This document shows positions 12,863 through 32,726 of a stretch of 64,000 nt of DNA, in pieces (position 1 is the stretch's first letter; every line of letters starts with the position of its first letter). The position numbers and the translations under genes are program-made. Source of the DNA: an uncultured Actinomycetota bacterium (GTDB lineage Bacteria > Actinomycetota > Acidimicrobiia > Acidimicrobiales > Palsa-688); the NCBI GenBank assembly GCA_963737075.1, contig CAVTRI010000004.1, positions 65,695-129,694 of the forward strand, written 5' to 3'. The notes beneath the pieces were generated by a model, which saw nothing but the letters and a program-made list of their open reading frames with translations, made no database searches and was not told the DNA's origin.

Positions 12863-15295
12863 ATGGACGCATTCGCGCTCACCTACGAAGGCTTTGACCC
12901 TGCTCAGGAGGGGCTTCGTGAGGCACTCACGTCGACCGGCAACGGATACCTGTGCACCCGCGGCGCCGCGGAGTGGGAGGACGCTGACGGCACCCACTAT
13001 CCGGGCACCTACGCGCACGGGGTCTACAACCGCGAGACGACGATCTTCGGCGGGTTGCCGGTACTCAACGAGGATCTCGTCAATCTTCCCAACTGGCTAG
13101 TGCTCAAGCTGCGCATTGAGGGCGAGGATGCGATCAGGCTTGCCGACGTGGAGCTGCTCGCCTATAGCCATCGGTTTGATATCCGTAATGCGACGGTCAT
13201 CAGGGAGCTACGTTTCCGCGATCGAAATTCGCGCGAGACGACGCTGCAAAGCCGGCGGTTCGTCAGTATGGCCGATGTCCATTACGCCGGGCTTGAGTGG
13301 ACGCTGACGGCGGACAATTGGTCCGGGCGCGTGGAGGTCGTCTCCGCGATCGACGGACGGGTGACCAATGCCGGCGTGGCTCGCTACCAGCAGCTGGAGG
13401 GCCGACATCTCGATCCGGTCTCGCCGAGGACGTTCGGTCCGGAGGTGATCGCGCTGAAGGTGCAGACTCGACAGTCGAATCTGTATATCAGCCATGCGGC
13501 GCGCAGCCAGGTGTTTCAGGGAACCCAGCCGATGGCTGTCGAGCGCAGTCTGTACCAGACCGAGGACTATATCCAGCAGGTGCTGGCGTTCGAGGTCCAG
13601 CAGGGAGCGCCGGTCCGGGTCGAGAAGATGATCGCCTTTTTCACCTCGCGTGACCCGGCCACAAGCGACACGCTGACCAAGGCGGGCGCATCGGCTAGAC
13701 GCGGTACGAACTTCGCTGACGCATTGGGACGCCATCGGTCGGCCTGGGAAGAGCTGTGGCGTGTGTCTGACGTGTACTCCACCGGAAGCGAAGAGGTGCA
13801 GCACCTGCTGCGGCTGCATACCTGCCACCTGTTGCAGGTATGCTCGCGTCACACCGCCGACATAGACGCGGGTGTCCCCGCCCGCGGGCTGAACGGCGAG
13901 GCCTACCGGGGGCACGTCTTTTGGGACGAGCTGTACGTGTATCCGTTCATCAACTACCGCATGCCGGAGGTCACGAGGGGACTGCTGATGTACCGCTACC
14001 GCCGGCTGGACGAGGCGCGTGCCGCGGCCCGGGAGGCAGGCTTCCACGGCGCCATGTTCCCCTGGCAGAGCGGCAGCGAAGGCACCGAGGAGACCCAAAC
14101 AGTCCACCTCAACCCACTGTCGGGCCACTGGGAACCTGACCTCAGCCGCAATCAGCGGCACGTCAACGCCGCGATCTTCTACAACGTGTGGCATTACTTC
14201 CAGGCGACCCAGGACCTGGCGTTCCTGCGCGACCAGGGCGCCGAGATCATGCTTGAGATCGCGCGCTTCTGGTCGTCGATCGCCCACTTCAATCCCGAGC
14301 GCCGGCGCTACGAGATCCACGGGGTGATGGGCCCCGACGAGTTCCACGAGAGGTACCCGGACGCCAAGGCGGGCGGCCTTCGCAACAACGCCTACACCAA
14401 CGTGATGGTGGCGTGGCTTTGCGAACTCGCCCGGAACGTCCTCTCGCTGCTGCCCGAAGGCCGCGCGGAGGCGCTGCGGGACAGTCTCCGCTTGGGCGAC
14501 GAGGAGTTGCGCACCTGGGAGGACATGAGTCGTCGGATGTTCGTGCCCTTCCACGACGCCGGCATCATCAGCCAGTTCGAGGGCTACGAGGCGCTCAAGG
14601 ACCTCGACTGGGACGCCTACCGCGCCAAGTACCGCAACATCCAGCGGCTCGACCGGATCCTGCGGGCCGAGGGCGATGATCCCAACCGCTACAAGATCGC
14701 CAAGCAGGCGGACACGGTGATGCTGTTCTACCTGTTCTCGCCGGAGGAGCTGCGGCGACTGTTCGCCCAGCTCGGCTATGACTACGGCCCCCACACCGCA
14801 CGCGACAGCGTCATCTACTACGACCGGCGCACCTCGCACGGCTCGACGCTCAGCTTCGTCACCTACGCCGGGGTACTGGCTGCGCTGGACCCCGAGAGCT
14901 CCTGGGAGCGGTTCCTGGTCGCCCTCAAAAGCGACGTCGGCGACATCCAGGGCGGGACAACCAAGGAGGGTATCCACATGGGCGTGATGGCAGGCACGCT
15001 CGACCTCGTGCAGCGCTGCTACATGGGCACGCACGTCCGCGACGACATCCTGCATTTCGATCCTCGGCTGCCGGCCCAGATCGAAAGCCTGTCCTTCTCG
15101 ATGCAGTTCCAACGGACCCCGCTCCTCGTGACCCTCGCCGACCACAACCGCCTGACGCTGATCGCCCACCCGGAGGGAGTCAACAGGCCGATCAGGGTCG
15201 GGGTGGGCGACCAGGTTCGCGAACTCTGCCCGGGGGAGCAGGTCACCTTCGAGCTGCAGCCGTCCCCCGGCGCGAAGCAGCAGGTCCACGGCTGA
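12863..15295 (+). CDS. glycoside hydrolase family 65 alpha-glucoside phosphorylase (trehalose / trehalose-6-P / maltose / kojibiose phosphorylase type)
   Basis: Reads MDAFALTYEGFDPAQEGLREALTSTGNGYLCTRGAAEW..., ARGLNGEAYRGHVFWDELYVYPF and MFPWQSGSEGTEETQ. The start was chosen at ATG 12863 (AGAGAGGGA upstream), with ATG 12809 as an alternative. The track ORF starting at 12239 overlaps otsB and is an over-extension. Confidence 0.85.
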   Translation: MDAFALTYEGFDPAQEGLREALTSTGNGYLCTRGAAEWEDADGTHYPGTYAHGVYNRETTIFGGLPVLNEDLVNLPNWLVLKLRIEGEDAIRLADVELLAYSHRFDIRNATVIRELRFRDRNSRETTLQSRRFVSMADVHYAGLEWTLTADNWSGRVEVVSAIDGRVTNAGVARYQQLEGRHLDPVSPRTFGPEVIALKVQTRQSNLYISHAARSQVFQGTQPMAVERSLYQTEDYIQQVLAFEVQQGAPVRVEKMIAFFTSRDPATSDTLTKAGASARRGTNFADALGRHRSAWEELWRVSDVYSTGSEEVQHLLRLHTCHLLQVCSRHTADIDAGVPARGLNGEAYRGHVFWDELYVYPFINYRMPEVTRGLLMYRYRRLDEARAAAREAGFHGAMFPWQSGSEGTEETQTVHLNPLSGHWEPDLSRNQRHVNAAIFYNVWHYFQATQDLAFLRDQGAEIMLEIARFWSSIAHFNPERRRYEIHGVMGPDEFHERYPDAKAGGLRNNAYTNVMVAWLCELARNVLSLLPEGRAEALRDSLRLGDEELRTWEDMSRRMFVPFHDAGIISQFEGYEALKDLDWDAYRAKYRNIQRLDRILRAEGDDPNRYKIAKQADTVMLFYLFSPEELRRLFAQLGYDYGPHTARDSVIYYDRRTSHGSTLSFVTYAGVLAALDPESSWERFLVALKSDVGDIQGGTTKEGIHMGVMAGTLDLVQRCYMGTHVRDDILHFDPRLPAQIESLSFSMQFQRTPLLVTLADHNRLTLIAHPEGVNRPIRVGVGDQVRELCPGEQVTFELQPSPGAKQQVHG

Positions 15296-15306
15296 GAGGA
15301 AGAGGC

Positions 15307-16101
15307 ATGCCGGCCAGGTTTCAAGGAGCTATCTTCGACGTCGACGGCGTGCTCGTCGACTCACCCCACCAGAAGGCATGGCGCGAGTCGCTCCGTCAGC
15401 TGATGGAGACCGACTGGAGCGACATTCGCGACCACACCACCTGGACGCCGAAGGCGTTCACGCCCCGGGTCTACGAGGAACAGATGTCCGGCAAGCCCCG
15501 CATGGACGGCGCCCGCTCGGCGCTGGAGTACTTCCATGTGCCTGATGACGACGACCATCGGCTGGCCCAGTACGCGGAGCGCAAGCAGGCCATGCTGGTC
15601 AAGCTGATCGAGGCCGGCGACTTCACCGCCTACCCCGATGCCCTGCGGTTCATCATCGCCGTCAAGGACGCCGGGATCCGTGTCGCTGCCGCCTCCTCCT
15701 CCAAGAACGCGAAGCTGTTCCTGCAGAAGATCAGGCTCGACAGCTTCGCCCAGGAACAAGGGATCCGCTCGGAGACGGTGCACCCGGGGCTGACGCTGCT
15801 CGACTTCTTCGACGCCGATTTGTCCGGCCGCGACTTCGCGCATGGAAAGCCCCACCCGGACATGTTCCTCGCCGCGGCGCGCGAGCTCCGAGTCGCACCC
15901 CAGCACTCGATAGTGCTGGAGGACGCCGAGGCCGGCGTGCAGGCCGCCAAGGCCGGCGACATGGCAGCGATCGGCATCGCCCGCGTCGACGACGCCGAGC
16001 TCCTGGCCGCGGCCCACGCCGACATCGTGGTCACGAACCTCGACGACGTCGACCTCGACGCACTAGCAGAAGGGCGTCTGGCCACGAAGGCCGCAACGTG
16101 A
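15307..16101 (+). CDS. pgmB: beta-phosphoglucomutase-like HAD hydrolase
   Basis: 264 aa. Contains AIFDVDGVLVDSPHQKAW, VAAASSSKNA, GKPHPDMFLAAA and VLEDAEAGVQAAKAGDM. It follows the GH65 gene by 11 nt, as in known GH65/beta-PGM pairs. Confidence 0.8.
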   Translation: MPARFQGAIFDVDGVLVDSPHQKAWRESLRQLMETDWSDIRDHTTWTPKAFTPRVYEEQMSGKPRMDGARSALEYFHVPDDDDHRLAQYAERKQAMLVKLIEAGDFTAYPDALRFIIAVKDAGIRVAAASSSKNAKLFLQKIRLDSFAQEQGIRSETVHPGLTLLDFFDADLSGRDFAHGKPHPDMFLAAARELRVAPQHSIVLEDAEAGVQAAKAGDMAAIGIARVDDAELLAAAHADIVVTNLDDVDLDALAEGRLATKAAT

Positions 16102-17826: not shown

Positions 17827-18714
17827 TCAGCGTTCAGCGCGGCTCGGAAGCTTCAGCTCATACACGGCGGCGAGATCGTCATCGGCGTGGCTGTTCTCGA
17901 CGTCGCCGATCCGCTCGAGGACGGCGTCGAGCAGGGGCAGCTCGACGCCCGAGTTGCTCGCAACCTCCCTGACGAGCTTGAGATCTTTGAGCGCGAGCCG
18001 CACGGGAAAGCCAGCCGGGTACTGGTGGCGTTGCATCTCGCCGAGCTTCTCGACACCGTAGGAGGAGCCCAGCGGTCCGCCATCGAGCAGGGTGACAAAC
18101 TGTTGCTCCTCAAGCCCCATCAATTTGCACAGGTGCATCGTCTCGGCGAGTGCAGCCACCATCGCGATCATCCAATGGTTGGCCGCCAACTTCAGGCGCG
18201 AGCCCATACCAGCCTCCCCCACCCACTGGACCCTCGAGCCGAGTGCAGCGAACACCGGCTCGATCTGCCCGCGAGCCGAGTGTGGCCCCGAGGCGAGGAT
18301 CGTCAGTTGGCCTTCCTCCGCTGGATGGGTGCTTCCCGAGACCGGCGCATCGAAAACGGTCACACCATGAGCGGTGGCGACTTTCACGAGTCGATCTGCC
18401 TCGGCCGCCCCGACGCTGCTCATCTGCAGCCAAATCGTCTCCTCAGGCCACTCATCGAGCAACGGCTCGACGACTGCGAGGACCACCTCGGCCGTCGGCA
18501 GCATCGTGATCACCGCCTGGGCGCCCCCCACCACCTCACCCGCCGTGCCGGCAACCGCGGCGCCGCGTTCGGCGAGGGGCTGCACGTGATCGCGTTCACG
18601 GTCCCAAGCGATCACCGCCACACCCTCGTTCAAAAGGCGATGAGCCATCGCCGTTCCCATCAGGCCGGTCCCAAGCAATCCGACCCGACTATCGGTTGCA
18701 CCGCTCATCTCCAT
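17827..18714 (-). CDS. NAD(P)-dependent beta-hydroxyacid dehydrogenase (HIBADH / 6-phosphogluconate-dehydrogenase NAD-binding family)
   Basis: 295 aa. Contains VGLLGTGLMGTAMAHRL (Rossmann motif), DAPVSGSTHPAEEGQLTILASG and LKLAANHWMIAMVAALAE. Confidence 0.75.
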   Translation of the reverse strand: MEMSGATDSRVGLLGTGLMGTAMAHRLLNEGVAVIAWDRERDHVQPLAERGAAVAGTAGEVVGGAQAVITMLPTAEVVLAVVEPLLDEWPEETIWLQMSSVGAAEADRLVKVATAHGVTVFDAPVSGSTHPAEEGQLTILASGPHSARGQIEPVFAALGSRVQWVGEAGMGSRLKLAANHWMIAMVAALAETMHLCKLMGLEEQQFVTLLDGGPLGSSYGVEKLGEMQRHQYPAGFPVRLALKDLKLVREVASNSGVELPLLDAVLERIGDVENSHADDDLAAVYELKLPSRAER

Positions 18715-19026
18715 CTCCTCGTTCTCCGGCCACCGGCGCCGGATGGGGTCGCGTCATCATGCACAGCATGCAACTGGCCGACCAGGCGCGCTCAATCACT
18801 GCGCCCGTTGACCGCCGAGCTGCTGGCCATCGTCGCATAACGAGGGTTGCCGCGGCGCCAAGTCCGGCCTGTCACCGATCGCGCACGCCCACAGCCGTCG
18901 AAACGACAGGATTGGTGGTGCCGCGTGGCCGACACAGGTGTCGACCGAACGTGCGTGAGCCCTGGCGGCACCTCGAGCCGGGGACACGCACGGGCCCATA
19001 CCGAATGGTCCGCAATGCGCAGTTGT

Positions 19027-20298
19027 TTAGCGGAGTCGGTAGAGGTCCTCGCCGGCGTCCGGCACCACCAGCGTGTCCGGGTCGGCGGCCCAGACCGTGG
19101 GGTCGATGGTGGCCGGGTCGAGGTAGTCGAGGTTGATGGAGCGGGTCACGCCCTCGGCGATGCCGGTGGCCAGCGTCACCGTGACCCGATCGCGCTCGCC
19201 GTGGACCTCGTCGAAGGTGCCGGCGCCGCGCAGGTGGGTGCAGTGGGCGAGGTCTCCCCAGTGGTAGTCCTTGAACCGGTCCCATTGCTTGACGAAGTAG
19301 TCGCGGCAGTGGTAGCCGATCTTGGCGATGTCTGGATGGGTGCTTGAGACCTCGTGGATGTGGGGGGCGTAGAGCACCACCTGGCCGCCATCGGCGACGA
19401 TCGGCTCCACCTTGTAAAAGCCCTTGGCCCCGGTCCACATGTCGTCGTACTTGGCCGGGACGAGCGACAGCACCCGGCGCACCGGGGCATTGAGGTAGCG
19501 AATGTGCGACTCGGCCGAGACGGCCGCCGCGGCATCCCACGCCGCTGCCGGGTCGCCGAAGGCCATCGAGTGCAGGTCCTCGGTTCGAGACTTCGTGACC
19601 ACGCAGAACGCGACCCGCTGTCCGGGGACCATCGACGCCGCCTCGTTGATCATGGCGCGCACCGGGGTGATCCCCTGGGTGCCGATGATCTTGGCGCTGG
19701 TGATCAGCGCGCCTAGCCAGTGCGACAGGTCGATGAGCTCTCGGCCGGAGACGCCGGGGAAGAGGTACTTGTTGCCGCCTGAGAAGCCGACGACCTCGTG
19801 GGGGAAGACGGGACTGACGATCAGTGTGACGTCGTGCTCGACGACGGCGCGGTTGACCCGCACGGGGGCGGTGTGATCGAGCATCCCGTTGGACAGCTCG
19901 GCGATCCGTTCGGCGGTGATGGTGCCCACGTCCGCGAACACCGACGGATCCCACCAGGCGTGGTTGAGCACCGTCATCGAGGGATAGGTCTTGGCCGATC
20001 CGCCGGCCTTATAGCCAAGGTGGGCGGCGAGCTCGGTCTCGGTCATCGCGGCGTGCGTCCCCAAGGCGACCAGCGCCGTCAGCCGGCTGACCCGCCCGTC
20101 CAAAGCGCCGTAAACGGCGGACAGCAGCAGCGGCAGGGGAAGGCTACGCGTGCCGTCCGGTACGAGCACGCATACGCTGCTCCCGTCGAGGTCCGTGGCA
20201 TCCAGTTGGTCGCGTACGAACCCCCGAATCTGGTCCTCGGTCAGCACCTGGTGGGGGCCGCCGATGCGGGGCACCGTGGTCGCGGCGGTTTGGGTCAT
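19027..20298 (-). CDS. LarA-like nickel-pincer-nucleotide-dependent 2-hydroxyacid racemase/epimerase (DUF2088)
   Basis: 424 aa from ATG 20298 (alternative ATG 20325). Contains VPDGTRSLPLP, LGTHAAM and SPVFPHEVVGFSGGNKYLFPGVSGRELIDLSHWLG. The H-x9-K-x15-H spacing equals, as far as I recall, His174/Lys184/His200 of L. plantarum LarA. Confidence 0.75.
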   Translation of the reverse strand: MTQTAATTVPRIGGPHQVLTEDQIRGFVRDQLDATDLDGSSVCVLVPDGTRSLPLPLLLSAVYGALDGRVSRLTALVALGTHAAMTETELAAHLGYKAGGSAKTYPSMTVLNHAWWDPSVFADVGTITAERIAELSNGMLDHTAPVRVNRAVVEHDVTLIVSPVFPHEVVGFSGGNKYLFPGVSGRELIDLSHWLGALITSAKIIGTQGITPVRAMINEAASMVPGQRVAFCVVTKSRTEDLHSMAFGDPAAAWDAAAAVSAESHIRYLNAPVRRVLSLVPAKYDDMWTGAKGFYKVEPIVADGGQVVLYAPHIHEVSSTHPDIAKIGYHCRDYFVKQWDRFKDYHWGDLAHCTHLRGAGTFDEVHGERDRVTVTLATGIAEGVTRSINLDYLDPATIDPTVWAADPDTLVVPDAGEDLYRLR

Positions 20299-20373
20299 AT
20301 CAACAAACCAGTGCCTTCGGAACACCTGGACGCAAGGGTTGCTTCATCGTCCGCAGACGTCCACTATAGGTGG

Positions 20374-21795
20374 ATGGCCGTCGGCCAACCAGCGCTGAGC
20401 CTCGATCCGGACCGGCTGCTGCCCGCCGAGCCCGGAGAGCGGAAAGTGGCGCAGCGTCTGTACGAGGCCGTGCGTGAGCTGCCGGTGATCTCCCCGCATG
20501 GACATGTGGATCCTCGGCTGCTGCTCGAAGACAAACCGTTCCCGGATCCGGCGACGCTGTTCGTAACGCCCGATCATTACGTGACCCGCCTTCTGCACGC
20601 CGACGGCGTGGCGCTGGATGCCCTCGGCGTCGGGCAGGGAGCGTTGTCCGAGGAGGCATCCCGGCGGGTGTGGCGACTGCTGTGCGAGCGCTGGCATCTC
20701 TTTCGCGGCACACCGGTCCGCTTCTGGCTGGAGATCGAGCTTGCCGACATCTTCGGCGTCGCCGTTCGCCCATCGGCGCACACCGCAGACGCGATCTACG
20801 ACCACGTGGCCGAACGCCTCGCCCAGGCCCCGTACCGGCCGCGGGCGCTCTATGAGCGGTTCCGCATCAGCGTCCTCGCCACCACCGATGACCCCTGCTC
20901 GGACCTGGCGACGCACGCCGCGCTCACCGCGGATCCCACGTGGTCGGGAAAGGTCATTCCCGCGTTCCGGCCCGACCGCTATCTCGAGCCCGCCCGGCCA
21001 GACTGGTCCGAGGCCGTCGCTCGGTTGGGCGCCGCGGCAGACATCGACACCGGCGACTACGGCGGATACATCCGCGCGCTCGAGCAACGGCGAGCACATT
21101 TCATAGCGCACGGCGCAAAATCGGCCGATCACAGCCATGACGACGTGCGGACCGATCCACTGGAGCCCTCAGAGGCGGCGCGGATCTACCGTACGGCGCT
21201 AGCCGGGGACGCAACCGGCCCGGAGGCAGTCGCCTTCCGGCGCCACATGCTGCTGGAAATGGCGCGGATGTCCTGCGAGGACGGGCTGGTGATGACGCTG
21301 CATCCCGGCGTCCGCCGCAACCACCACCGACCGACGTTCGAGCGGTTCGGGCCCGACACCGGCGGCGACATTCCGATCCGGATCGAATTCACCGACGCGC
21401 TGCGGCCTCTGCTCGAGCGGTTCGGGACGCACCCGGGTTTTCACCTGGTCGTGTTCACCGTGGACGAGACGGTGTTCTCGCGCGAGCTCGCGCCCCTGGC
21501 GGGGTTCTACCCCTCGGTATACGTCGGCGTGCCGTGGTGGTTCCTCGACGCCCCCGACGCCATCCGCCGCTTCCGCGCTGCGGTGACTGAGACGGCCGGC
21601 TTCTCGCGTACCTCCGGTTTCGTCGACGACACACGCGCGTTCTGCTCTATCCCCGCCCGTCACGACACGTCCCGCCGCGTCGACGCCGGCTTCCTGGCTC
21701 GACTGGTGGCCGAGCACCGTCTGGACGAAGACGAGGCGCTGGAGACGGCCATCGACCTCGTCACCGGCCGCCCGGCGGTGGTGTTCAAGCTATGA
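20374..21795 (+). CDS. uxaC: glucuronate isomerase
   Basis: Reads MAVGQPALSLDPDRLLPAEPGERKVAQRLYEAVRELPVISPHGHVDPRLL... for about 473 aa. The track ORF from 19798 is an over-extension antisense to larA-like. Confidence 0.85.
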   Translation: MAVGQPALSLDPDRLLPAEPGERKVAQRLYEAVRELPVISPHGHVDPRLLLEDKPFPDPATLFVTPDHYVTRLLHADGVALDALGVGQGALSEEASRRVWRLLCERWHLFRGTPVRFWLEIELADIFGVAVRPSAHTADAIYDHVAERLAQAPYRPRALYERFRISVLATTDDPCSDLATHAALTADPTWSGKVIPAFRPDRYLEPARPDWSEAVARLGAAADIDTGDYGGYIRALEQRRAHFIAHGAKSADHSHDDVRTDPLEPSEAARIYRTALAGDATGPEAVAFRRHMLLEMARMSCEDGLVMTLHPGVRRNHHRPTFERFGPDTGGDIPIRIEFTDALRPLLERFGTHPGFHLVVFTVDETVFSRELAPLAGFYPSVYVGVPWWFLDAPDAIRRFRAAVTETAGFSRTSGFVDDTRAFCSIPARHDTSRRVDAGFLARLVAEHRLDEDEALETAIDLVTGRPAVVFKL

Positions 21796-23174
21796 GCGCC
21801 GGGGAACTCTCCCGCTCCGCGGGACAGGGTCGCGCGGCCGCCCCGGTGCGGCTCGTGCACCTGGGGCTGGGCAATTTTTTCCGCGCCCATCAGTGCTGGT
21901 ACACCGAGCACGCCCCCGATGCCGCCGAGTGGGGGATCGCGGGATTCCTCGGGCGCGGCGACAGCCCCCTCGTGGAGCAGCTGAACACCCAAGAGGGCCT
22001 CTACACGCTGGTGTCGCGAGGCGGCGACAGAGACCGTTTCGAAGTAATCGGCAGCCTCTCGCGGGCGCACGTGGCGGCCGATCACGGCGCCTGGCTTGAC
22101 TATTTCAAGAAGCCCGAGTTGTGCGCGGTGACGGTCACCGTGACTGAGGCCGGATATCTGCGGGGCGCCGACGGGGGGCTCGACGTAAGTCGCTCTGAGG
22201 TCCAGGCCGATCTCAAGGCGCTGCGTGGGGATCTCACGGCGCTCGTGCGTACCGCCCCCGCTCGCCTATTAGCCGGGATCGCGGCACGAAGGCAGGCCAG
22301 CGGGGGGCCACTCGCACTCGTGCCTTGTGACAACACACCGGGCAACGGCGCGCTGGCGGAGCGGGTCGTCCAGGACCTGGCCGAGCTCCTCGACCCCGAT
22401 CTGGCTACCTGGCTGAAGGGCTCAGTGGCCGTCGTCACCACGATGGTGGACCGGATCACCCCCCGGACCACGCCGGAGGACATTCGCACGGTGGCCGATT
22501 CGACGGGGCTCGACGACCGGTGCCCGGTGGTCAGTGAACCGTTCCACGAATGGGTGCTCAGCGGCAGATTCCCCGCCGGGCGTCCCCAGTGGGAGAAGGC
22601 AGGCGCCACGTTCACCGACGACATCACCCCGTACGAGCATCGCAAGCTGTGGCTGCTCAACGGCGCCCACTCTCTGCTTGCCTACGCCGGATCGATTAGG
22701 GGGCACACGAAGGTGGACGAGGCGATAGCCGACGACACCTGTCGGGGCTGGGTGCTGGATTGGTGGGCGGTGGCCGCTCCCCACCTCGACCAGCCCGCCG
22801 GCGAGCTCAACAGGTACCAGGCCGCACTGCTGGAGCGCTTCGCTAACAGTCGCATGCACGATCGGCTGGACCGAATCGCCGCCGACGGCTCCCAGAAGTT
22901 GCAGATCCGGATTCTTCCCGTCCTGCGCGCCGAGCGAGCGGCAGGAAGAGCGCCGCCGGCTGCGACGCGCGTGTTGGCCGCCTGGGTGTGTCATTTGCGC
23001 GGGCTCGGGCCGCCGGTCAGCGACGCCCGTGCCGACGAGTTCGTCCCCCTCGCCGCGGGTCCGCTTTCCGAGGCGGTGCCACGGGTGCTCGACAAGCTGG
23101 ATCCGGAACTCGGGGCCGACGCCGACGTGGTGGCGCTCGTCGTCGAGCAGACCAGCCAGCTGGCCAAACGATGA
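21792..23174 (+). CDS. mannitol dehydrogenase family oxidoreductase (fructuronate/tagaturonate reductase type)
   Basis: 460 aa. The ATGA overlap with the uxaC stop indicates an operon. Contains LVHLGLGNFFRAHQCWYT, VTVTEAGY, VPCDNTPGNG, TMVDRITP and LWLLNGAHSLLAY. Confidence 0.8.
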   Translation: MSAGELSRSAGQGRAAAPVRLVHLGLGNFFRAHQCWYTEHAPDAAEWGIAGFLGRGDSPLVEQLNTQEGLYTLVSRGGDRDRFEVIGSLSRAHVAADHGAWLDYFKKPELCAVTVTVTEAGYLRGADGGLDVSRSEVQADLKALRGDLTALVRTAPARLLAGIAARRQASGGPLALVPCDNTPGNGALAERVVQDLAELLDPDLATWLKGSVAVVTTMVDRITPRTTPEDIRTVADSTGLDDRCPVVSEPFHEWVLSGRFPAGRPQWEKAGATFTDDITPYEHRKLWLLNGAHSLLAYAGSIRGHTKVDEAIADDTCRGWVLDWWAVAAPHLDQPAGELNRYQAALLERFANSRMHDRLDRIAADGSQKLQIRILPVLRAERAAGRAPPAATRVLAAWVCHLRGLGPPVSDARADEFVPLAAGPLSEAVPRVLDKLDPELGADADVVALVVEQTSQLAKR

Positions 23175-24784
23175 CCCCAAGCCTGTCCGCGCCGGTGATC
23201 ATCGGGCTGGACGTGGGCACCACCGCGGTCAAAGCGGTGGCCTTCGAGCCTGGCTCGTCGTGGCGCCGGGACGCGTCCCGCGAGTATCCGCTCCTGCAGC
23301 CAGCGCTCGGTCAGGTGGTGCAGGATCCCGCCAAGATCCTTGCGGCGGCGCAGGGCGCGCTCGCCGAATGCGTCGCCGCCACCAACAACGCTGAGGTCCT
23401 GGCGGTGTCGGTCAGCGCGGCGATGCACGGGCTGATCGCCCTAGACGCCGGCCTGCACCCGCTGACCTCGCTGCTCACCTGGGCTGACGATCGCGCCAGC
23501 GAGGAGGCGCGGTCGCTGCACCGCTCCGGGCAGGCCCCACAACTGCACGCCCTCACCGGCGTGCCGGTCCATCCCATGACCCCGATGACCAAGCTCATGT
23601 GGTTCGCCCGGCACGACCGAAAGACCTGGTTGTCGGCTCGCTGGTGGGTGGGCCTCAAGGACTACATCCTGCTGTGGTTGACCGGCAAGCTCGTCACCGA
23701 ACTGTCGTCGGCGTCCGGCACCGGCCTGATCGACATGTCCACCCGCGCCTGGAGCGACACGGCACTCGGGGTGTGCGGCGTGTCCGCCGACCGCCTCCCT
23801 CAGATCCTGGCCACCACCGCCAAGCTGGCGATCGCAGAGGCGACGGCCGGCCAGGTCGGCCTACCGGCCGACACGACAGTCGTGGTCGGGGCCGCCGACG
23901 GGCCGCTCGGTAATCTCGGCACAGGAGCGATCACGAAGGGCGTCGCCGGACTGTCGCTCGGCACGAGCGGCGCGGTTCGCATCGCGGTGGAGCAGCCACG
24001 TGTCGACGCCGACGGCTCACTGTTCTGCTATGCGCTGACCGACACGGTGTGGGTCATGGGCGGGGCGCTCAGCAACGGCGGCGGCGTCATGCGCTGGGCC
24101 GGTCACTCGCTGACCCCCGACATCGAGGCCGGCGTCGGCGATACCGGACTCTACCCGGCGCTGCTCGATCTGGCGGCCAGCGTCCCCCCGGGCAGCGAAG
24201 GGCTCCTGATGCTCCCCTACCTGCTGGTCGAGCGCGCCCCGCTGTGGGACCCCGACCTTCGAGGAGCGTATCTCGGCCTGCGCCGCCAGCACACGCGAGC
24301 GCACCTCGTTCGCGCGGCGCTCGAAGGGGTCTGCATGCAGATGCGGATCATCCTCGACCGCCTCGACGCGATCGATGAGGTCAGCTCGGTGCGGGTGACC
24401 GGCGGCGTCTTCCGCTCGGCCTTGTGGCGACAGGTGATGGCGGCCACCCTCGACCGACCGCTATACGTTGTCGGCGAGGCGGACGGAACCGCGCTGGGCG
24501 CCGCCGCCTTGGCGCTGTTGGCCCTGGGCCGAGCTTCGACCCTGACCGACGCCCTGGCAGGGCTGGCCGACAGCGGCCAGGCCGAGCCGATCGACGCCGA
24601 CCCCGAGCTAGTAGCCACTTACGAACGGCTGCGGGCCTCGCTCCCCGAGCTGATCCACGGCCTCGAGGATCTCGCCGGTCTACTCTCAGCCCATTCCCAC
24701 CCTGACTCGAGCGCGGCCGAAAAGACCCGACCTCACAGTGCACCGGCCACGGCTGATTTAGCTTGCGAGGGTCGATGCTCGTAG
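23171..24784 (+). CDS. FGGY-family carbohydrate kinase, gluconokinase-like
   Basis: ATG 23171 overlaps the previous stop (ATGA). Contains IIGLDVGTTAVKAVAF, VSAAMHGLIALD, GAADGPLGNLGTG, GGALSNGG and VTGGVFRSALWRQVMA. Confidence 0.75.
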   Translation: MTPSLSAPVIIGLDVGTTAVKAVAFEPGSSWRRDASREYPLLQPALGQVVQDPAKILAAAQGALAECVAATNNAEVLAVSVSAAMHGLIALDAGLHPLTSLLTWADDRASEEARSLHRSGQAPQLHALTGVPVHPMTPMTKLMWFARHDRKTWLSARWWVGLKDYILLWLTGKLVTELSSASGTGLIDMSTRAWSDTALGVCGVSADRLPQILATTAKLAIAEATAGQVGLPADTTVVVGAADGPLGNLGTGAITKGVAGLSLGTSGAVRIAVEQPRVDADGSLFCYALTDTVWVMGGALSNGGGVMRWAGHSLTPDIEAGVGDTGLYPALLDLAASVPPGSEGLLMLPYLLVERAPLWDPDLRGAYLGLRRQHTRAHLVRAALEGVCMQMRIILDRLDAIDEVSSVRVTGGVFRSALWRQVMAATLDRPLYVVGEADGTALGAAALALLALGRASTLTDALAGLADSGQAEPIDADPELVATYERLRASLPELIHGLEDLAGLLSAHSHPDSSAAEKTRPHSAPATADLACEGRCS

Positions 24785-24797
24785 CGTCCATCGGCTG

Positions 24798-25490
24798 ATG
24801 GCCGCGACCGGTCAGCCGAGCGGGCCGGCCGAGGCTTCCCATCGGCCGTTAGTGACAATTGCCGCCCTGTACGGGGCGGCCGGCACCGTCATCGGTCCCC
24901 GCGTCGCCGAGCGGCTGGGGGTGCCGTATCTCGATCGTGCGATTCCGGATGCTGTCGCCAAGCGGACGGGCCTGTCGCCCGATGCCGTCGCCGACGTCGA
25001 CGAGCAGCCGCGCTCCGGCGCCGAGCGGCTCGTCGCCATCCTGGGGCGGGCGTCGACGATCGGCGGCGGCGCCGGCGGCTCGATGGAGCGGCTCGATCTC
25101 CTGGAGCGGGAGCTGCGGGGTTACATCGAGGAGTTCCTGGCCCGGTCGCGAGTCTCCGGGGGCGTGGCCCTCGGACGCGGCGGTGCGGTCGTTTTGCGCT
25201 CGGTGCCATGGGCGCTGCACGTCCACCTGGGCGGCGCCCGCGAGGCCCGGATACAGCAGCGTATGGCGCTCGAGGGAATCGACCGCAAGACCGCCGAGCA
25301 CCGCCAGGAGGTAACGGACCGGGCGCGGATGGGGTACGTTCGCCGCGCCTACGGCGTCGATGGCGAGGACCCGAGCCTGTATCACCTGATGCTCGACTCG
25401 ACGGCGATGGACATCGATGCGTGCGTGAAGCTGATCGTCACGGCGAGCGAGGCCCGACTGCGTCGCCCGCGACCAACCGCCCCGGCGTGA
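24798..25490 (+). CDS. cytidylate-kinase-like (Cytidylate_kin2) family protein
   Basis: 230 aa. Contains VTIAALYGAAGTVIGPRVAERLGVPYLDRAI (a degenerate P-loop typical of this family), VVLRSVP..LHVHL.. and RRAYGVDGEDPSLYHLMLDS. Confidence 0.6.
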   Translation: MAATGQPSGPAEASHRPLVTIAALYGAAGTVIGPRVAERLGVPYLDRAIPDAVAKRTGLSPDAVADVDEQPRSGAERLVAILGRASTIGGGAGGSMERLDLLERELRGYIEEFLARSRVSGGVALGRGGAVVLRSVPWALHVHLGGAREARIQQRMALEGIDRKTAEHRQEVTDRARMGYVRRAYGVDGEDPSLYHLMLDSTAMDIDACVKLIVTASEARLRRPRPTAPA

Positions 25491-25500
25491 GGAGGACACC

Positions 25501-27283
25501 ATGCTCGCACCCCGCGATACCCAGACTCGCCAGCGAAAGTCGCTCGACGGCCTGTGGCGGTTCTTGCTCGACGCGGAGGGCGTCGGCCGCGACCAGAGCT
25601 GGTGGGAGGGGCTACCGGAGGGAGCGCGGGAGATACCGGTGCCGTCGAGCTACAACGACATCTTCCCCGAGGCGGCCGTGCACGACCATGTCGGCGACGC
25701 CTGGTATGAGACCGTCGTTCGCGTCCCCCCGGGGTGGGCGCACGAGCGGGTCGTGTTGCGGTTTGGCTCCGCGACCCACCGGGCGGTGGTGTGGGTCAAT
25801 GGCATCCAGGTGGTCGACCACGAGGGCGGGTACACCCCGTTTGAGGCCGACGTCACCGATGTCGTCGACGTGGATGCAGACAATCGGGTCACGGTCGCGG
25901 TCAACAACGTCCTCACCTGGCAGTCGATTCCGCCCGGCTACCTCGAGGACACTCCAGACGGTCCCCGTCAGCGGTATTTCCACGACTTCTTCAACTATGC
26001 GGGGCTGCACCGTTCGGTCTGGCTGTACACCACGCCGCGCGCACGTGACCGACGTAACGGTCGTCACCGGCCTGGCCGGCTCCGCGGGGACTGTCGGCTA
26101 CGAGGTCGACACGGTCGCCGCCGATGGCCTGCAGGTGCTGGTCACGCTGCGCGACGCCCGGGGCGCCCAGGTCGCCAGCTCATTGGGCAGCGTTGGCGAG
26201 CTCACCGTCGAGAACGTTCATCCTTGGCGGCCGGGTGAGGGATACCTCTACCAGTTGGCGGTGGAGCTGCGGGGCGAGCGGGACGTGCCGGTCGACGCCT
26301 ACTCGCTGGCCATCGGCGTCCGAACGGTGGCGGTGTCAGGGCCGCGCTTTTTGGTCAACGGGGAGCCGTTCTATTTCAGGGGGTTCGGAAAGCACGAGGA
26401 CAGCGCGGTCCGGGGCAAAGGCCACGACAACGTGTTCATGGTCCACGACTTCGCGCTGATGGACTGGATCGGCGCCAACTCGTTCCGCTCCTCGCACTAC
26501 CCGTACGCCGAGGAGGTGCTCGAGTACGCCGACCGGCACGGGCTCGTGGTGATCGACGAGACGCCCGCGGTCGGTCTCAACATGGGGTTGGGCGGAGGCA
26601 TCTTCGGCAGGCAGGGCTTCAAGACGTTCTCCGAGGAGACCGTCAACGACGCGACCCGGGAGGTCCACCGGCAAGTGATCCGCGAGCTGATCGCCCGCGA
26701 CAAGAACCACCCGTGCGTGGTCTTGTGGAGCATCGCCAACGAACCGGAGTCAGACACGCCGGAGTCGCGGGCGTATTTCGAGCCCCTCGCGGACGAGGCG
26801 CGCCGGCTCGACCCCTCGCGTCCGGTCGGCTTTGTCAACGTGATGCTCGCTCCGCCTGATAAGGACGTGATCAGCGACCTCTTCGACGTCCTGATGCTCA
26901 ACCGCTACTACGGCTGGTATGTCGATACCGGCGACCTGGCGGCCGCCGAGCGCGGGCTCGAGGCCGAGCTGCGCGCCTGGACGCAGAAGCATGACAAGCC
27001 GATCATCATCACCGAGTACGGAGCCGACACCCTCCCGGGGTTGCAGACGATCCCTCCGGCACCGTGGAGCGAGGAGTACCAGGCGGAGTTGCTGGCCATG
27101 TCGCACCGCGTGTTTGACCGCATCGATGCCGTTAGCGGAGAGCAGATCTGGAACTTCGCGGACTTCGCTACCGGGCCGGGGATCATGCGGGTGGACGGCA
27201 ACAAGAAGGGCGTCTTCACCCGGGACCGGCGCCCGAAGGCCGCCACCCACCACTTGCGCCGCCGCTGGCGCGGGCTGAGTTGA
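25501..27283 (+). pseudogene. uidA: beta-glucuronidase (GH2), copy 1, single frameshift
   Basis: GAGGAGG RBS. Frame 1 reads MLAPRDTQTRQRKSLDGLWRF...FHDFFNYAGLHRSVWLYTTPR. It then switches at about 26036-26045 (a CGCGCGC run) to the frame reading AHVTDVTVVTGL...FYFRGFGKHED...SHYPYAEE...WSIANEPES...IIITEYGADT...[14 protein letters not shown]. Confidence 0.85.
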
Positions 27284-27299
27284 GCCGCCGGGAGAGCGC

Positions 27300-28703
27300 G
27301 TGATGAAGCTCCACTTGCGCCAATACCTCGGATACGCCTCAGGAGACTTCGCGAACAACCTGACGTTCATGATGGTGTCCGCGTTCCTGCTGATCTACTA
27401 CACCGACGTCGCCAAGATTTCCGCGGCGACGGCGGGTTCGCTGTTCCTGGTGGTTCGCATCTGGGGCGGCTTTACCGACCTGCTGGCCGGCCGCCTTGTC
27501 GACGAGACTTCTACGAGGTGGGGCAGGTTCCGGCCCTACCTGCTGTTCGGCCCCCTGCCGCTGCTGGCGCTCCTGGTGGCGGTGTTCTCGATCCCGGGCG
27601 CACTGGGCAAGGACGGCAAGCTGGTGTGGGCGCTCTTGTCCTACGGCCTGTTCCAACTCGCCTATTCATTCGTCAACATCCCCTACGGCTCGCTGGCCGC
27701 CGCGATGACCCAGGACTCTGGCGAGCGGGCCAAGCTCTCGACGGGCCGCATGGTCGGGGCCAGCCTCGCGATCCTGCTGATCGCTGTCGTCATCTCGCCC
27801 CAGATCTCCGGCGGCGGCAATCTGCAGCGCTCGCTGACGATCACCACGATCGTGTTCGGGGCGGGGGGGTTCGCGCTGTACATGTGGTGCTTCGCCACCT
27901 CGAAGGAAAATGTGCAGCGCGATGTGGAGAAGGTCAGCCTGCGCGAGACGGTGAAAATGATGCGCCACAACCGACCGCTGATCTTGTTGTGCGCCTCGAG
28001 CCTGTTGTTCCTCGCCGGCATGTTCTCGCTGCAGACCGTCGCCGTCTACTACGCCCGCAACGTGCTCGGCGACGCCAACCTGTACATCGTGCTGACGGTC
28101 GTCCAGACGGTGGGCACGATTATCGCCGCCGTGCTCATCCCGAATGCCGTCGAGACGATCGGCAAGAAACGCGCCTACCTCGTGTCCGGTGTCATCGGGG
28201 CCGCGGGCGGCGTCGGCGTCGCCGTGGCCCCGGGATCGATCCCCGAGATCGGGATCGTGTGCTACGCCGTGCTCGGCTTCGGGATGGGAGCGATCAACAC
28301 CCTCATCTTCTCCTTACAGGCCGACACCGTCGACTACGGCGAGTGGAATAGCGGCGTACGCGCCGAAGGCTCGAGCTACTCCGTGCTCTCCTTCACCCGC
28401 AAGGCGGGCCAGGGGGTCGGGGGGGCGGTGGCGGCTTACACGATCGGGATCGGGGGCTACATCTCCGGGGCGAGCACCCAGACCCACTCGGCTCTGACGT
28501 CGATCAAGGTCGCCGCCGGGGCTCTGCCCGCCGGGCTGTTCCTCGCCGCGGCCGCGGTGATGCTCGCCTACCCGCTGACAGAGAACGCTTTCCGTCGCAT
28601 GGTGGCCGAGATCGCCGAGCGCCACGCCGCCGAGTTCGCGGGCGAAGACGCAGCGCTGCTCGCTGAGGCCGAGCAGGAGCCGACCGGCGAGCAGAGACTA
28701 TGA
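27300..28703 (+). CDS. GPH-family (glycoside-pentoside-hexuronide):cation symporter, glucuronide-transporter-like
   Basis: 467 aa with about 12 TM segments. Contains YASGDFANNLTFMMVSAFLLIYYTDV, GRLVDETSTRWGRFRPYLLFG and the IPYGSLAAAMT motifs. Confidence 0.8.
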   Translation: MMKLHLRQYLGYASGDFANNLTFMMVSAFLLIYYTDVAKISAATAGSLFLVVRIWGGFTDLLAGRLVDETSTRWGRFRPYLLFGPLPLLALLVAVFSIPGALGKDGKLVWALLSYGLFQLAYSFVNIPYGSLAAAMTQDSGERAKLSTGRMVGASLAILLIAVVISPQISGGGNLQRSLTITTIVFGAGGFALYMWCFATSKENVQRDVEKVSLRETVKMMRHNRPLILLCASSLLFLAGMFSLQTVAVYYARNVLGDANLYIVLTVVQTVGTIIAAVLIPNAVETIGKKRAYLVSGVIGAAGGVGVAVAPGSIPEIGIVCYAVLGFGMGAINTLIFSLQADTVDYGEWNSGVRAEGSSYSVLSFTRKAGQGVGGAVAAYTIGIGGYISGASTQTHSALTSIKVAAGALPAGLFLAAAAVMLAYPLTENAFRRMVAEIAERHAAEFAGEDAALLAEAEQEPTGEQRL

Positions 28704-29185
28704 AGCGTTCTGCTACGCCCGCGAATGCGGTGCCGTCGCTAACCGGCGCCCTGGCGTGACGCTGCGGTCGGGCACCGAGCCGCTCGAAGTGGCGTTCTCT
28801 AGCGGGATGGACTGCTCGACGCTGCTGGCGTGGGCGGCCCCGGCGCTGGGTCACGCTCAGGTTCTCGCCGCGCCAGGCGTCTCGCCAGTCTCGCGGCCCT
28901 CCGAGCGTGTCGCGACCCGTCGGGACGCCGCGTTCGCCGGAGTCCGTCTCGTCGAGGTGGCGAGGTTCGACGGCAGTCGGCTTCACCGAGCTGCGGGTTC
29001 ACCACCCTGGCGAGGAGGTGGCGAGCATCGAGCTGCCGGTGGCCGAGCTTGGCCGGCCCGCCAGCCGGGTGCGCGAAGCCGTCCAGCGTGCGAAAAGTTG
29101 CGCCGGGTTCCTATTCGTGGCGCCCGACCCGGCGGCGTGTAATCGGGCGCCTTTACGTTGCCGCTGATCCACTACGAGGAGCACC

Positions 29186-31621
29186 ATGACTGACGTCACC
29201 ACGCCGCCCACCCCGACCGAGAACGCTCCGCTGCCCGCCGACGAGCTCGCCCTCGTCGACGCCTATTGGCGGGCGGCGAACTACCTTTCGGTCGGACAGA
29301 TCTACCTGCTCGACAACCCGCTGCTGCGCGAGCCGCTGCGTCTCGAGCACATCAAGCCGCGGTTGCTCGGCCACTGGGGCACGACTCCCGGGCTGAACTT
29401 CATTTACGCGCACATGAACCGGGTGATCCGGCGCGAGGACCTCGACGCCATCTACGTGACCGGCCCCGGTCACGGCGGCCCCGCGCTCGTGGCCAACGTG
29501 TATCTCGAGGGCACCTACAGCGAGATCTACCCCCACATCGGCCACCACGAGGAGGGGCTGGGACGCCTCTTCCGGCAGTTCTCGTTCCCCGGCGGGATCC
29601 CCAGCCACGTCGCCCCGGAGACACCAGGGTCGATCAACGAGGGCGGCGAGCTCGGCTACTCGCTCGCGCACGCCTACGGGGCGGCGTTCGACAACCCCGA
29701 CCTGCTGGTCTGCTGCGTCGTCGGCGACGGAGAGGCCGAGACCGGCCCGCTGGCGGGAAGCTGGCACTCGAACAAATTCCTCAACCCGATCACCGACGGC
29801 GCGGTGCTGCCGATCCTGCACCTGAACGGCTACAAGATCGCCAATCCGACCGTGCTCGCCCGCATCCCCGAGGACGAGTTACGTGCGCTGCTCGAAGGCT
29901 ACGGCTACGCGCCACGGTTCGTAAGCGGCTCGGAGCCACACGAGATGCATCAGCAGATGGCGGCGACGCTCGATGAGGTCATGAGCGAGATCTGTCGGCT
30001 TCAAGGCAACGCCCGCGAGCACAACGACCCGGCACGACCGCGCTGGCCGATGATCGTGCTGCGCACCCTCAAAGGGTGGACAGGCCCGAAGGAGGTCGAC
30101 GGCGTGCCCGTCGAGGGCACCTTCCGCGCCCACCAGGTCCCGCTCGCCGAGGTGCGTTCGAATCCGGATCACCTGCGACAGCTTGAGCGATGGATGCGCT
30201 CCTACCGACCCGAGGAGCTGTTCGACGACGCCGGGGCGCTGCGTCGGGACCTGGCAGGGTTGGTGCCCACCGGCGAGCGACGCATGGGGGCAAACCCGCA
30301 CGCAAACGGCGGGCTGCTGACACGCCCGCTCGAGCTGCCTGACTTTCGCGACTACGCGGTCGACGTGCCCGCCCCCGGGGCCGCGACGGCCGAGGCCACG
30401 CGCGTTCTGGGTGGGTTTCTGCGCGACGTGATCGCGCAGAATCCCAACAACTTTCGGCTGGTGGGGCCCGACGAGACGGTCTCCAACCGGCTGACCGCGG
30501 TGTTCGAGAAGACCAACCGCGCCTGGGACGCGGAGTGGGTGCCCGGCGATGACCATCTCGCCCCCGACGGGCGGGTGATGGAGATCCTCAGCGAGCACCT
30601 CTGCGAGGGCTGGCTCGAGGGCTACCTCCTGACCGGCCGCCACGGCCTGTTCAACTCCTACGAGGCGTTCACCCACATCGTGGACTCGATGTTCAACCAG
30701 CACGCCAAATGGCTGGAGACGACCAACAGGATCGCCTGGCGGCGACCGATCCCGTCGCTCAACTACCTGCTCTCCTCGCACGTCTGGCGCCAGGACCACA
30801 ACGGCTTCACCCATCAAGACCCCGGGTTCATCGACCACGTGCTCAACAAGAAGCCCAGCATCATCCGGGTCTACCTCCCGCCCGACGCCAATTGCCTGCT
30901 GTCGACCGCCGACCACTGCCTGCGCAGCGTCCAATACGTCAACGTGATCGACATCGGCAAGCAACCCGCCCTGCAGTACCTGACGATGGACGAGGCGATC
31001 ATGCACTGCACGCGTGGCATCGGCATCTGGGAATGGGCCAGTAACGCCGACGGTAAACCCGATGTGGTGCTCGCCTGCGCGGGCGACGTGCCGACGCTCG
31101 AGACGGTCGCGGCGGCGGCGCTCCTACGCGAGCACCTGCCCGATCTGCGCGTGCGGGTGATCAACGTCGTCGACCTGATGCGCCTCGCGCCCGAGTCAGA
31201 CCATCCGCACGGACTGCCCGATGCCGAATTCGATGCACTATTCACCCGTGACCGCCCAATCATCTTCGCCTACCACGGCTATCCGTGGCTGATCCATCGC
31301 CTCACGTATCGGCGCACCAACCACGATGGGATGCACGTGCGCGGCTACAAAGAAGAGGGCACCATAACCACCCCCTTCGACATGGTCATGATGAACGACC
31401 TCGACCGCTTCCACCTCGTGATGGATGTCATCGACCGCGTGCCCGGTCTGCCCGAGCGGGCCGCCGCCCTCCGTCAGCACATGGGCGACGAGCGCCTGCG
31501 CCACCGGGCCTACACCCGGCAGGTGGGCGACGACCCCCCCGACGTCCATGACTGGGTATGGCCGGGATCGCACTTCCCGCCTGGCGCGCCGACGGCCAGC
31601 CCGGACAGCCGGCCGGTGTAA
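29186..31621 (+). CDS. xfp: xylulose-5-phosphate/fructose-6-phosphate phosphoketolase
   Basis: 811 aa with GAGGAG RBS. Contains [59 protein letters not shown] and [11 protein letters not shown]. Confidence 0.9.
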
Positions 31622-31628: not shown

Positions 31629-32726
31629 GTGCGCATCCTCGTCGTCAACGCGGGATCGAGCAGCCTCAAGCTGCGACTGCTCGGACCCAACGACGAGAGC
31701 CTCGCCGAGCACGACCTCGACGCGCTGGAAACCGACGGCCAGGTTCGGAAGCTCGAAACGTTGATCGCAGGCTTGTCAGATGTTGACGCCGTGGGCCATC
31801 GCATCGTGCACGGCGGCGAACGGTTCGTGGGCCCGGTACTCATCGAGGCCGGAGTGGAGCAGGCGTTACGAGAGCTCACCGACCTCGCTCCGCTACACCA
31901 GGCCAAATCGCTCGCGGCGCTCGACGCCGTGAACGGGGCGCTTCCCGACACTCCCGCGGTGGCGTGCTTCGACACCGCGTTTCATGCCACCCTTCCGGCC
32001 GCAGCCTTCACCTACCCGGTGCCCGGGGATTGGCGCAGGCGCTGGGGCGTACGACGATACGGTTTCCACGGCCTCTCACACGCCTACGCTTCTCGGCGCT
32101 CCGCCGAGCTGCTCGGTCGCGACAGCGCACGGATTGTCACCTGCCACCTCGGCGCCGGCGCCTCGCTCGCCGCCGTGCGCGACGGACAGTCGGTCGAGAC
32201 AACCATGGGCTTCACGCCGCTCGACGGGCTGGTGATGGCCACCCGTTCGGGCAGCCTCGATCCCGGCCTCCTTCTATGGCTGCTCGAGCACGCACACGTC
32301 GACGAGGCCGACCTGGCCGGCACTCTCGAGCACAACTGCGGCCTGCGGGCGCTGGCGGGCACACCGGACATGCGGGAGGTTTTACGCCGACGAGAGGCGG
32401 GCGATGCCGAGGCCCACCTGGCGATCGAGGTCTATGTGCATCGCCTACGAGCCGAGATCGCCGCCATGACCGCCGCGCTGAGCGGTCTGGACGCGCTCGT
32501 CTTCACCGGTGGCGTCGGCGAACACTCGCCGCTGGTGCGCGAGCTTGCGTGTGCCGGGCTTGAGTTTCTGGGGGTGCGCATCGATCCAACCGCCAACGCC
32601 CGGGCCGACGGTGACCAAGATGTGTCCGCGGCGAAGTCCGCGGCCTCGGTGCTGGTGATCGCGGCCCGCGAGGATCTCGAGATCGCCCGAGGCGTGCGCG
32701 AGGTACTCGGCAAAGCTGCTCGATGA
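31629..32726 (+). CDS. ackA: acetate kinase
   Basis: GTG 31629. Reads VRILVVNAGSSSLKLRLL... Contains GHRIVHGG, CFDTAFHATLP, YGFHGLSHAY and TCHLGAGASL. The track ORF from 31425 overlaps the end of xfp and is an over-extension. Confidence 0.85.
   Translation: MRILVVNAGSSSLKLRLLGPNDESLAEHDLDALETDGQVRKLETLIAGLSDVDAVGHRIVHGGERFVGPVLIEAGVEQALRELTDLAPLHQAKSLAALDAVNGALPDTPAVACFDTAFHATLPAAAFTYPVPGDWRRRWGVRRYGFHGLSHAYASRRSAELLGRDSARIVTCHLGAGASLAAVRDGQSVETTMGFTPLDGLVMATRSGSLDPGLLLWLLEHAHVDEADLAGTLEHNCGLRALAGTPDMREVLRRREAGDAEAHLAIEVYVHRLRAEIAAMTAALSGLDALVFTGGVGEHSPLVRELACAGLEFLGVRIDPTANARADGDQDVSAAKSAASVLVIAAREDLEIARGVREVLGKAAR

Follow-up and report, generated by a model that had tools for sequence, protein, structure and literature searches.

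A glucuronide-linked gene cluster with a group-19 LarA homologue in an uncultured Actinomycetota bacterium: a probable GntE-type branch of hexuronate catabolism

Introduction

In Escherichia coli the gus operon and the Ashwell pathway together provide the glucuronidase UidA, the symporter UidB, the isomerase UxaC and the reductase UxuB, and mannonate is then processed by the canonical UxuA-KdgK-Eda route. A different fate for mannonate has been proposed for Thermotoga maritima by Rodionova et al. (2012; as relayed in PMC6978723 and PMC7583248), in which gntE, located between the genes for fructuronate reductase and gluconokinase, links mannonate to the pentose phosphate pathway. Two enzymes of this type, GntE1 from Corynebacterium glutamicum and GntE2 from T. 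maritima, which belong to LarA-homologue (LarAH) groups 19 and 20, respectively, epimerise D-mannonate to D-gluconate in vitro with a nickel-pincer cofactor (Desguin et al. 2020, PMC7583248). Here we describe a gene cluster encoding a LarA homologue in a 64-kb stretch of DNA (hereafter the window; ~67% G+C) from an uncultured Actinomycetota bacterium of the order Acidimicrobiales (assembly GCA_963737075.1, contig CAVTRI010000004.1, positions 65,695 to 129,694 of the forward strand), together with the evidence that the cluster would direct glucuronate to gluconate by way of mannonate.

GntE1 and GntE2 have turnover rates on free mannonate of 59 and 197 per second, respectively, and the characterisers of GntE1 doubted that mannonate is its native substrate (PMC7583248). 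Among the neighbours of group-19 genes, Table S1 of the same study gives LarB, LarC, LarE, glucuronate isomerase, COG0246 and beta-glucuronidase. In Lactobacillus suebicus, uronate is converted through mannonate to 6-phosphogluconate and then enters the phosphoketolase route; activities of a mannonate kinase and of a 6-phosphomannonate 2-epimerase were measured, with the kinase acting first, the genes were left unassigned and homologues of gluconokinase were suspected (Valk et al. 2020, PMC6978723). A search of the literature returned no later paper assigning genes to the mannonate kinase or the 6-phosphomannonate epimerase.

We present evidence that the LarA homologue of the window belongs to group 19 and that the locus probably encodes an actinobacterial form of the GntE-type hexuronate branch, one supplied by glucuronides. 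The first-pass annotation of this DNA had arrived at a possible mannonate-to-gluconate bypass and considered its wiring undescribed. The biochemical route is well supported, by virtue of the group-19 placement and the related loci described below; the novelty does not, for the design was proposed by Rodionova et al. in 2012, according to the later papers that cite that work, the activity and gene context were reported by Desguin et al. in 2020, and a phosphoketolase variant was reported by Valk et al. in the same year. The cluster adds one more case to a design that was already known; it is no new pathway.

Results

The LarA homologue of the window falls within group 19

The LarA homologue is a protein of 423 amino acids whose ATG lies at 20298; a database protein of the same length matches it exactly, and it is one residue shorter than the 424 amino acids first annotated. 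Its best match in the PDB is 4NAR (E 6.7e-59, residues 43-423), a structure deposited as 'putative uronate isomerase' and equated with T. maritima GntE2 (LarAH20) by Desguin et al. (PMC7583248). The D-G-T-R, G-T-H and P-H-x9-K-x15-H motifs named in the first-pass annotation are present, the first within PDGTRS. When the protein was aligned with sequences of groups 18 to 20, taken from Dataset S2 of the same study, all six LarA residues D72, R75, H108, H174, K184 and H200 (L. plantarum numbering) were found at the corresponding positions.

Identity and tree topology agree on the placement. The protein shares 49% identity with C. glutamicum GntE1, 33-34% with group 20 (GntE2) and 24-25% with group 18. 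For group 19 overall the values are 44-68%, and for its members from Frankia, Modestobacter, Kribbella and Intrasporangium 61-68%; in a neighbour-joining tree the protein nests within group 19 alongside members from these same four genera. The group-19 pocket patterns H-E-V, W-T-x-A-K and G-L-A-x-T-H can be read in the protein, and it is identical at 11 of the 12 group-19 signature positions (E175, V176, W294, T295, A297, K298, G353, L/I355, A356, S358, T359 and H360), the exception being position 358. Membership of group 18 was rejected, as the protein reaches 157 bits with the NCBIfam model 'putative hexonate epimerase', whose cut-off is 500, and identity to that group is low. The family is very large: at least 8000 candidates were scored, all with E < 1e-10, and the best 120 are 73-100% identical to the window protein. 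Judged by its sequence, the protein is a member of LarAH group 19 (GntE1-type), and thereby a homologue of an assayed D-mannonate/D-gluconate 2-epimerase.

Genes for a proposed glucuronide-to-gluconate route adjoin the epimerase gene

The first-pass annotation had read the cluster as a larA-like gene on the minus strand, divergent from uxaC and from genes for a reductase, an FGGY kinase, a cytidylate kinase-like protein, a glucuronidase and a GPH symporter, with xfp and ackA beyond them; the listing of open reading frames (ORFs) and the Pfam and NCBIfam matches confirm this order (Table 1). Both ATGA junctions that it had noted are in the sequence, the stop of uxaC overlapping the start of the reductase gene at 21792 and the stop of the reductase gene overlapping the start of the kinase gene at 23171. 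It had also reported uxuA, kdgK and eda as missing from the 64 kb. Approximately 60 ORFs across the window, including those in the gaps between confident genes, were scanned with Pfam or NCBIfam models, and no UxuA, PfkB-type KdgK or Eda was detected among them; a tblastn search of the window with PfkB kinases was likewise negative. The beta-glucuronidase, of family GH2, lies where it had been placed, but its gene is not the single ORF it was taken for. Three points lay outside that annotation: the frameshift in uidA, a dead larE gene and a window without gnd.

Table 1. Features of the cluster and its immediate downstream region, in window coordinates
Feature	Position	Strand	Evidence
LarAH group-19 (GntE1-type) nickel-pincer nucleotide (NPN)-dependent D-mannonate/D-gluconate 2-epimerase homologue	19027-20298	-	Pfam Lar_N (PF09861) 74 bits (cut-off 23.3); 423 aa, intact
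Divergent intergenic region, epimerase gene and uxaC	20299-20373		75 bp; read from sequence
uxaC, glucuronate isomerase	20374-21795	+	NF002794 541 bits (cut-off 387); Pfam UxaC 242 bits
Mannitol_dh-family reductase, probably fructuronate reductase (UxuB-like)	21792-23174	+	Pfam Mannitol_dh and Mannitol_dh_C
FGGY kinase, gluconokinase branch	23171-24784	+	TIGR01314 gntK_FGGY 371 bits, under cut-off of 648.55
Cytidylate_kin2-family protein	24798-25490	+	PF13189 113 bits; PDB matches are uncharacterised proteins only
uidA, GH2 beta-glucuronidase, frameshifted	25501-27283	+	NF007538 in two frames: 242 bits (N-terminal), 633 bits (C-terminal)
GPH-family glucuronide symporter (UidB/GusB-like)	27300-28703	+	TIGR00792 375 bits (cut-off 231); NF007353 497 bits (cut-off 528)
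larE pseudogene, degraded fragment (sulfur transferase for the NPN cofactor)	28762-29134	+	tblastn, three LarE queries
xfp, phosphoketolase	29186-31621	+	Pfam XFP_N 586, XFP 295, XFP_C 318 bits
ackA, acetate kinase	31629-32726	+	Pfam Acetate_kinase 369 bits

Two of the assignments in Table 1 call for comment. The Mannitol_dh-family protein is probably a fructuronate reductase of the UxuB type: the models for UxuB, mannitol 2-dehydrogenase and DalD all outscore that for UxaB, its PDB matches are 1LJ8 and 4IM7, and the assignment itself is drawn from context, a reductase gene of this kind accompanying the epimerase gene in 38 of 56 related loci (see below). The FGGY kinase appears closest to the FGGY gluconokinases, and gluconate is its predicted substrate; its best model is gntK_FGGY, ahead of XylB at 292 bits, and its best PDB match is 3GBT, a 'gluconate kinase' (308 bits, versus 176 bits for a xylulokinase).

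We propose that beta-glucuronides would be imported by the GPH symporter and that UidA would release D-glucuronate, which UxaC would convert to D-fructuronate and the reductase, if its substrate is as predicted from context, to D-mannonate. The group-19 LarA homologue would then invert C2 to give D-gluconate; in this chemistry a hydride would be passed to the lysine-tethered NPN, two histidines would act as acid and base, and a 2-keto compound would be the intermediate. The FGGY kinase would convert D-gluconate to 6-phosphogluconate, which could enter the oxidative pentose phosphate route (Gnd/Rpe) and, as xylulose-5-phosphate, reach the adjacent phosphoketolase and acetate kinase. We infer this downstream link because gnd and rpe are not in the window, and the order of the epimerase and kinase steps is likewise a deduction. 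The predicted route from glucuronide through mannonate and gluconate to 6-phosphogluconate is well supported.

The locus resembles each of the described systems in part. Like the E. coli systems, it has UidA, UxaC, a symporter resembling UidB and a reductase resembling UxuB, whereas the window lacks UxuA, KdgK and Eda, whose place in the operon is held by the genes for the epimerase and the gluconokinase-like protein. With C. glutamicum GntE1 it shares group 19, the NPN-binding, catalytic and pocket signature, and a published group context that includes uronate genes. It differs in carrying Cys at position 358, where group 19 has Ser, and in context: in the sample of Desguin et al. (three genes on either side) larE/larB are found beside 33% of the group-19 members and uxaC beside 24%, whereas the window has a full uronate operon and only a remnant of larE. 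The T. maritima system, GntE2 (TM0442, 4NAR) with GntK and Gnd, has the same succession of fructuronate reductase, mannonate, LarA-type epimerase, gluconate, gluconokinase and pentose phosphates, as far as the later papers relay it, and there too the genes for epimerase, reductase and kinase lie together in a cluster. GntE2, however, belongs to group 20 and is 33% identical to the window protein, and its branch is described, in the same secondary accounts, for pectin/galacturonate loci with Gnd downstream, whereas the window has glucuronide input genes, adjacent xfp and ackA, and no linked gnd. The L. suebicus route (PMC6978723) likewise runs from uronate through mannonate and 6-phosphogluconate to phosphoketolase and acetate kinase, and is redox-neutral to ribulose-5-phosphate; there the kinase precedes a 6-phosphomannonate epimerase, whereas the context of the window favours the epimerase first.

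Several smaller observations concern the cluster itself. A 295-aa dehydrogenase encoded downstream of the epimerase gene (17827-18714) was considered as a substitute for Gnd and rejected; it is HIBADH/tartronate-semialdehyde-reductase-like and is found in none of the 80 related loci. Between the divergently transcribed epimerase gene and uxaC, immediately 5' of the uxaC ATG, stands the short palindrome CCACTATAGGTGG, at 20355-20373; it might serve as an operator, or else as the -10 region if the transcript is leaderless. No regulator gene lies within the cluster, in contrast to the LacI-type gene found nearby in 29 of the 80 relatives, and a consensus scan of 18600-29250 for promoters and terminators gave nothing above the shuffled background. 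The Cytidylate_kin2 gene stands between the FGGY kinase gene and uidA both in the window and in Planosporangium, and in three related loci (L007, 4779-5345; L076, 11429-12049; L065, 5480-6073) a gene of this family lies beside or not far from genes for a glucuronidase or a glucuronide transporter, in the vicinity of the epimerase gene.

Uronate genes accompany orthologous epimerases in related genomes

The checks suggested by the first-pass annotation included placement of the protein among characterised LarA homologues, which led to group 19, and a comparison of synteny in relatives. For the latter, a scan of species-representative genomes, in which genes were called and clustered and their presence was confirmed by tblastn, yielded 80 loci, all from Actinomycetota and 56 of them with full 10-kb flanks; the closest (78% identical) are from metagenome-assembled genomes (MAGs) of Solirubrobacteraceae. 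Of the 56 loci that have full flanks, 33 carry uxaC near the epimerase gene, 38 the reductase gene and 31 both together; LarB, LarC and LarE are encoded nearby in 23, 22 and 24, respectively, and a LacI-type regulator in 23. Counted over all 80 loci, an FGGY kinase gene is found in 10, always in the order uxaC-mdh-FGGY, a UidA gene in 11 and a GPH symporter gene in 7. A P-loop gluconokinase of the GntK/IdnK type (TIGR01313, 175 bits; cut-off 114) is encoded near the epimerase in 7 loci and Gnd (NF006765, 723 bits; cut-off 413) in 4, one of which (L008) has the order Gnd-Mdh-UxaC, divergent from the epimerase gene.

The order of the window is repeated in Planosporangium sp. 12N6 (L007), as GPH-UidA-CytK2-FGGY-Mdh-UxaC divergent from the LarAH gene, with SGL (SMP-30/gluconolactonase), AckA and Xfp nearby. 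One Solirubrobacteraceae MAG (L003) has LarE-FGGY-Mdh-UxaC divergent from LarAH-LarB-LarC. No lar gene lies within 10 kb of the epimerase gene in 32 of the 56 loci with full flanks; unlinked larBCE genes are therefore common. Since two non-homologous gluconokinases and Gnd recur beside orthologous epimerases, gluconate would be the product of the epimerase and would then be phosphorylated, and the contexts with the P-loop gluconokinase and Gnd favour an epimerase step that precedes the kinase step.

Discussion

The proposal that the locus is a GntE-type branch fed by glucuronides has to be set against a number of contrary observations. GntE1 has a Km for D-mannonate of 120 mM, one basis of the doubt expressed by Desguin et al. 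(PMC7583248). At position 358 (equivalent to W358 of LarA, in the motif LAHCTH) the window protein has a Cys that is unique among 77 homologues, of which 71 have Ser and 2 have Ala. The reductase falls under the NCBIfam cut-offs, scoring 235 bits for UxuB (cut-off 603), 258 for DalD and 142 for UxaB, and the FGGY kinase falls under every NCBIfam cut-off, that of gntK_FGGY included. Neither Gnd nor rpe was found within the window, and xfp lies near the epimerase gene in only one of the 80 related loci (L007), so that linkage to Xfp was rejected as a conserved feature. In seven Kribbella loci (L027, L031, L037, L045, L046, L051 and L052) the epimerase gene stands between genes for an FAD-linked oxidase and a flavin monooxygenase, with a CBS-domain cystathionine-beta-synthase-like gene next after these flanks; uronate and lar genes were not found within 10 kb of the epimerase gene there, which suggests a different or an unlinked role for these epimerases.

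The remaining difficulties concern the integrity of the locus. The reading frame of uidA shifts between 26037 and 26039, within a run of CG repeats (ccgcgcgcacg), and the tblastn match passes from frame 1 to frame 2; this is probably a loss or slip of two nucleotides in the repeat, and may be a real lesion or an error of assembly. No match to larB or larC was obtained within the window, and all that remains of larE is a fragment between the symporter gene and xfp that matches LarE residues ~23-103 and, in a second frame, 198-267 (E 1e-8 to 2e-5), in which the PP-loop motif SGGxDS has degenerated to SSGMDC. Because a Kineococcus locus (L040) retains an intact uidA-GPH-larE-larB order, the window has probably lost larE, larB and larC by deletion. 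Whether the cluster works in this genome is uncertain because the linked larE is dead and the glucuronidase gene is interrupted; it works only if larBCE are present elsewhere and if, in addition, either the lesion in uidA is an artefact of sequencing or the substrate is free glucuronate.

Three other accounts of the locus were weighed against the epimerase-first branch. Phosphorylation might come first, the FGGY enzyme being a mannonate kinase and the LarA homologue a 6-phosphomannonate 2-epimerase that yields 6-phosphogluconate directly. Both activities occur in L. suebicus extracts, where gluconokinase homologues were suspected and the genes have, in the literature searched, remained unnamed (PMC6978723), the 120 mM Km of GntE1 for free mannonate would fit a phosphorylated native substrate, and the 371 bits of the FGGY kinase are short of the gluconokinase cut-off of 648; yet free mannonate is a substrate of both GntE1 and GntE2, with the turnover rates given above (PMC7583248), and in 7 loci group-19 orthologues with the same signature adjoin uxaC, mdh and a P-loop GntK/IdnK, a type whose E. 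coli representative does not use mannonate (Valk et al. 2020, PMC6978723). We regard this order of steps as quite improbable. It is also very unlikely, in our estimation, that the epimerase acts on another sugar acid, either D-altronate or an aldarate (glucarate/mannarate, the suggestion of Desguin et al. for group 19), with the kinase serving some other substrate. The high Km and the differences between the sequence logos of groups 19 and 20, which underlie the doubt of those authors (PMC7583248), speak for such a substrate, as do the capacity of UxaC to make tagaturonate and the Kribbella-type context devoid of uronate genes. Against it, the commonest neighbours of the epimerase gene are uxaC and a reductase that is UxuB- or mannitol 2-dehydrogenase-like rather than UxaB-like, gluconokinases and Gnd recur nearby, and the beta-glucuronidase and glucuronide transporter indicate that glucuronate is the input. 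We know of no entry into central metabolism for allonate, the C2 epimer of altronate, which counts against altronate in particular.

The most serious competitor, although still a rather unlikely one, is that the locus is a decaying relic or a side branch, which has lost its cofactor genes and suffered a break in its glucuronidase gene, any use of hexuronates proceeding through a canonical UxuA-KdgK-Eda route encoded elsewhere. The larE remnant, the lack of larB and larC in the window, the S358C replacement unique to this homologue, the disruption of both copies of uidA, the split or truncated genes for an M20 peptidase, transketolase, transaldolase, an IS110 transposase and a second G6PD, and the several insertion sequence (IS) elements and group II intron in the window all fit such a history. 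The epimerase, uxaC, reductase, kinase and symporter genes are, however, full length in comparison with their relatives and have a strong coding signal, larBCE are commonly unlinked in related genomes, and the many frameshifts could be indel errors of the assembly.

The result is of limited value for discovery. The context of the 80 loci gives physiological backing to the view that LarAH group 19 serves to epimerise mannonate to gluconate, a point which the characterisers of GntE1 had left open over its high Km. The survey additionally indicates cultured strains with the full cluster for work in vivo, among them Planosporangium sp. 12N6, Streptomyces sp. NBC_01618 and Blastococcus mobilis DSM 44272, and a redox-neutral route from uronate to ribulose-5-phosphate is of interest for engineering uronate fermentation. 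A kinase-first order would explain the very high Km of GntE1 for free mannonate, and the branch would then be, in many Actinomycetota, the principal redox-neutral route for glucuronate, replacing UxuA-KdgK-Eda; we hold that broader reading to be improbable.

Other features of the window

The window contains further duplicated and interrupted genes. A second set lies 11-15 kb downstream (38637-42611, compared with 25479-27272 and 32749-35073) and comprises a diverged uidA copy, a G6PD gene that is shortened and, at 71% DNA identity, an SMP-30/gluconolactonase gene. This second uidA (38637-40421; 73% DNA identity) is out of frame over ~39905-40150 and has a stop at 40071, and the second SGL/G6PD pair is oriented opposite to the first. 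The M20 peptidase (8511-9747), transketolase (44129-45987) and an IS110 transposase (62525-63759) are each split into two overlapping ORFs, and of the transaldolase a 72-aa fragment alone is left (35778-35996). With both uidA lesions included, disruptions occur at approximately one per 10 kb of the window; either the assembly is prone to indels or genes are truly decaying in a region rich in IS elements.

The window also carries several mobile elements. A DDE_3 (IS630-like) element is present in two inverted copies that are 99.9% identical (47140-48394 and 59069-60323), with a partial third copy at the window end (63763-64000). Also present are an IS110 transposase (53152-54198), a group II intron reverse transcriptase (57727-59028) and a Mutator-family transposase (61015-62286). 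An unrelated sugar cluster at 10910-16101 encodes PPK2, a trehalose-phosphatase-like protein, an 810-aa glycoside phosphorylase of family GH65 and a HAD hydrolase resembling beta-phosphoglucomutase.

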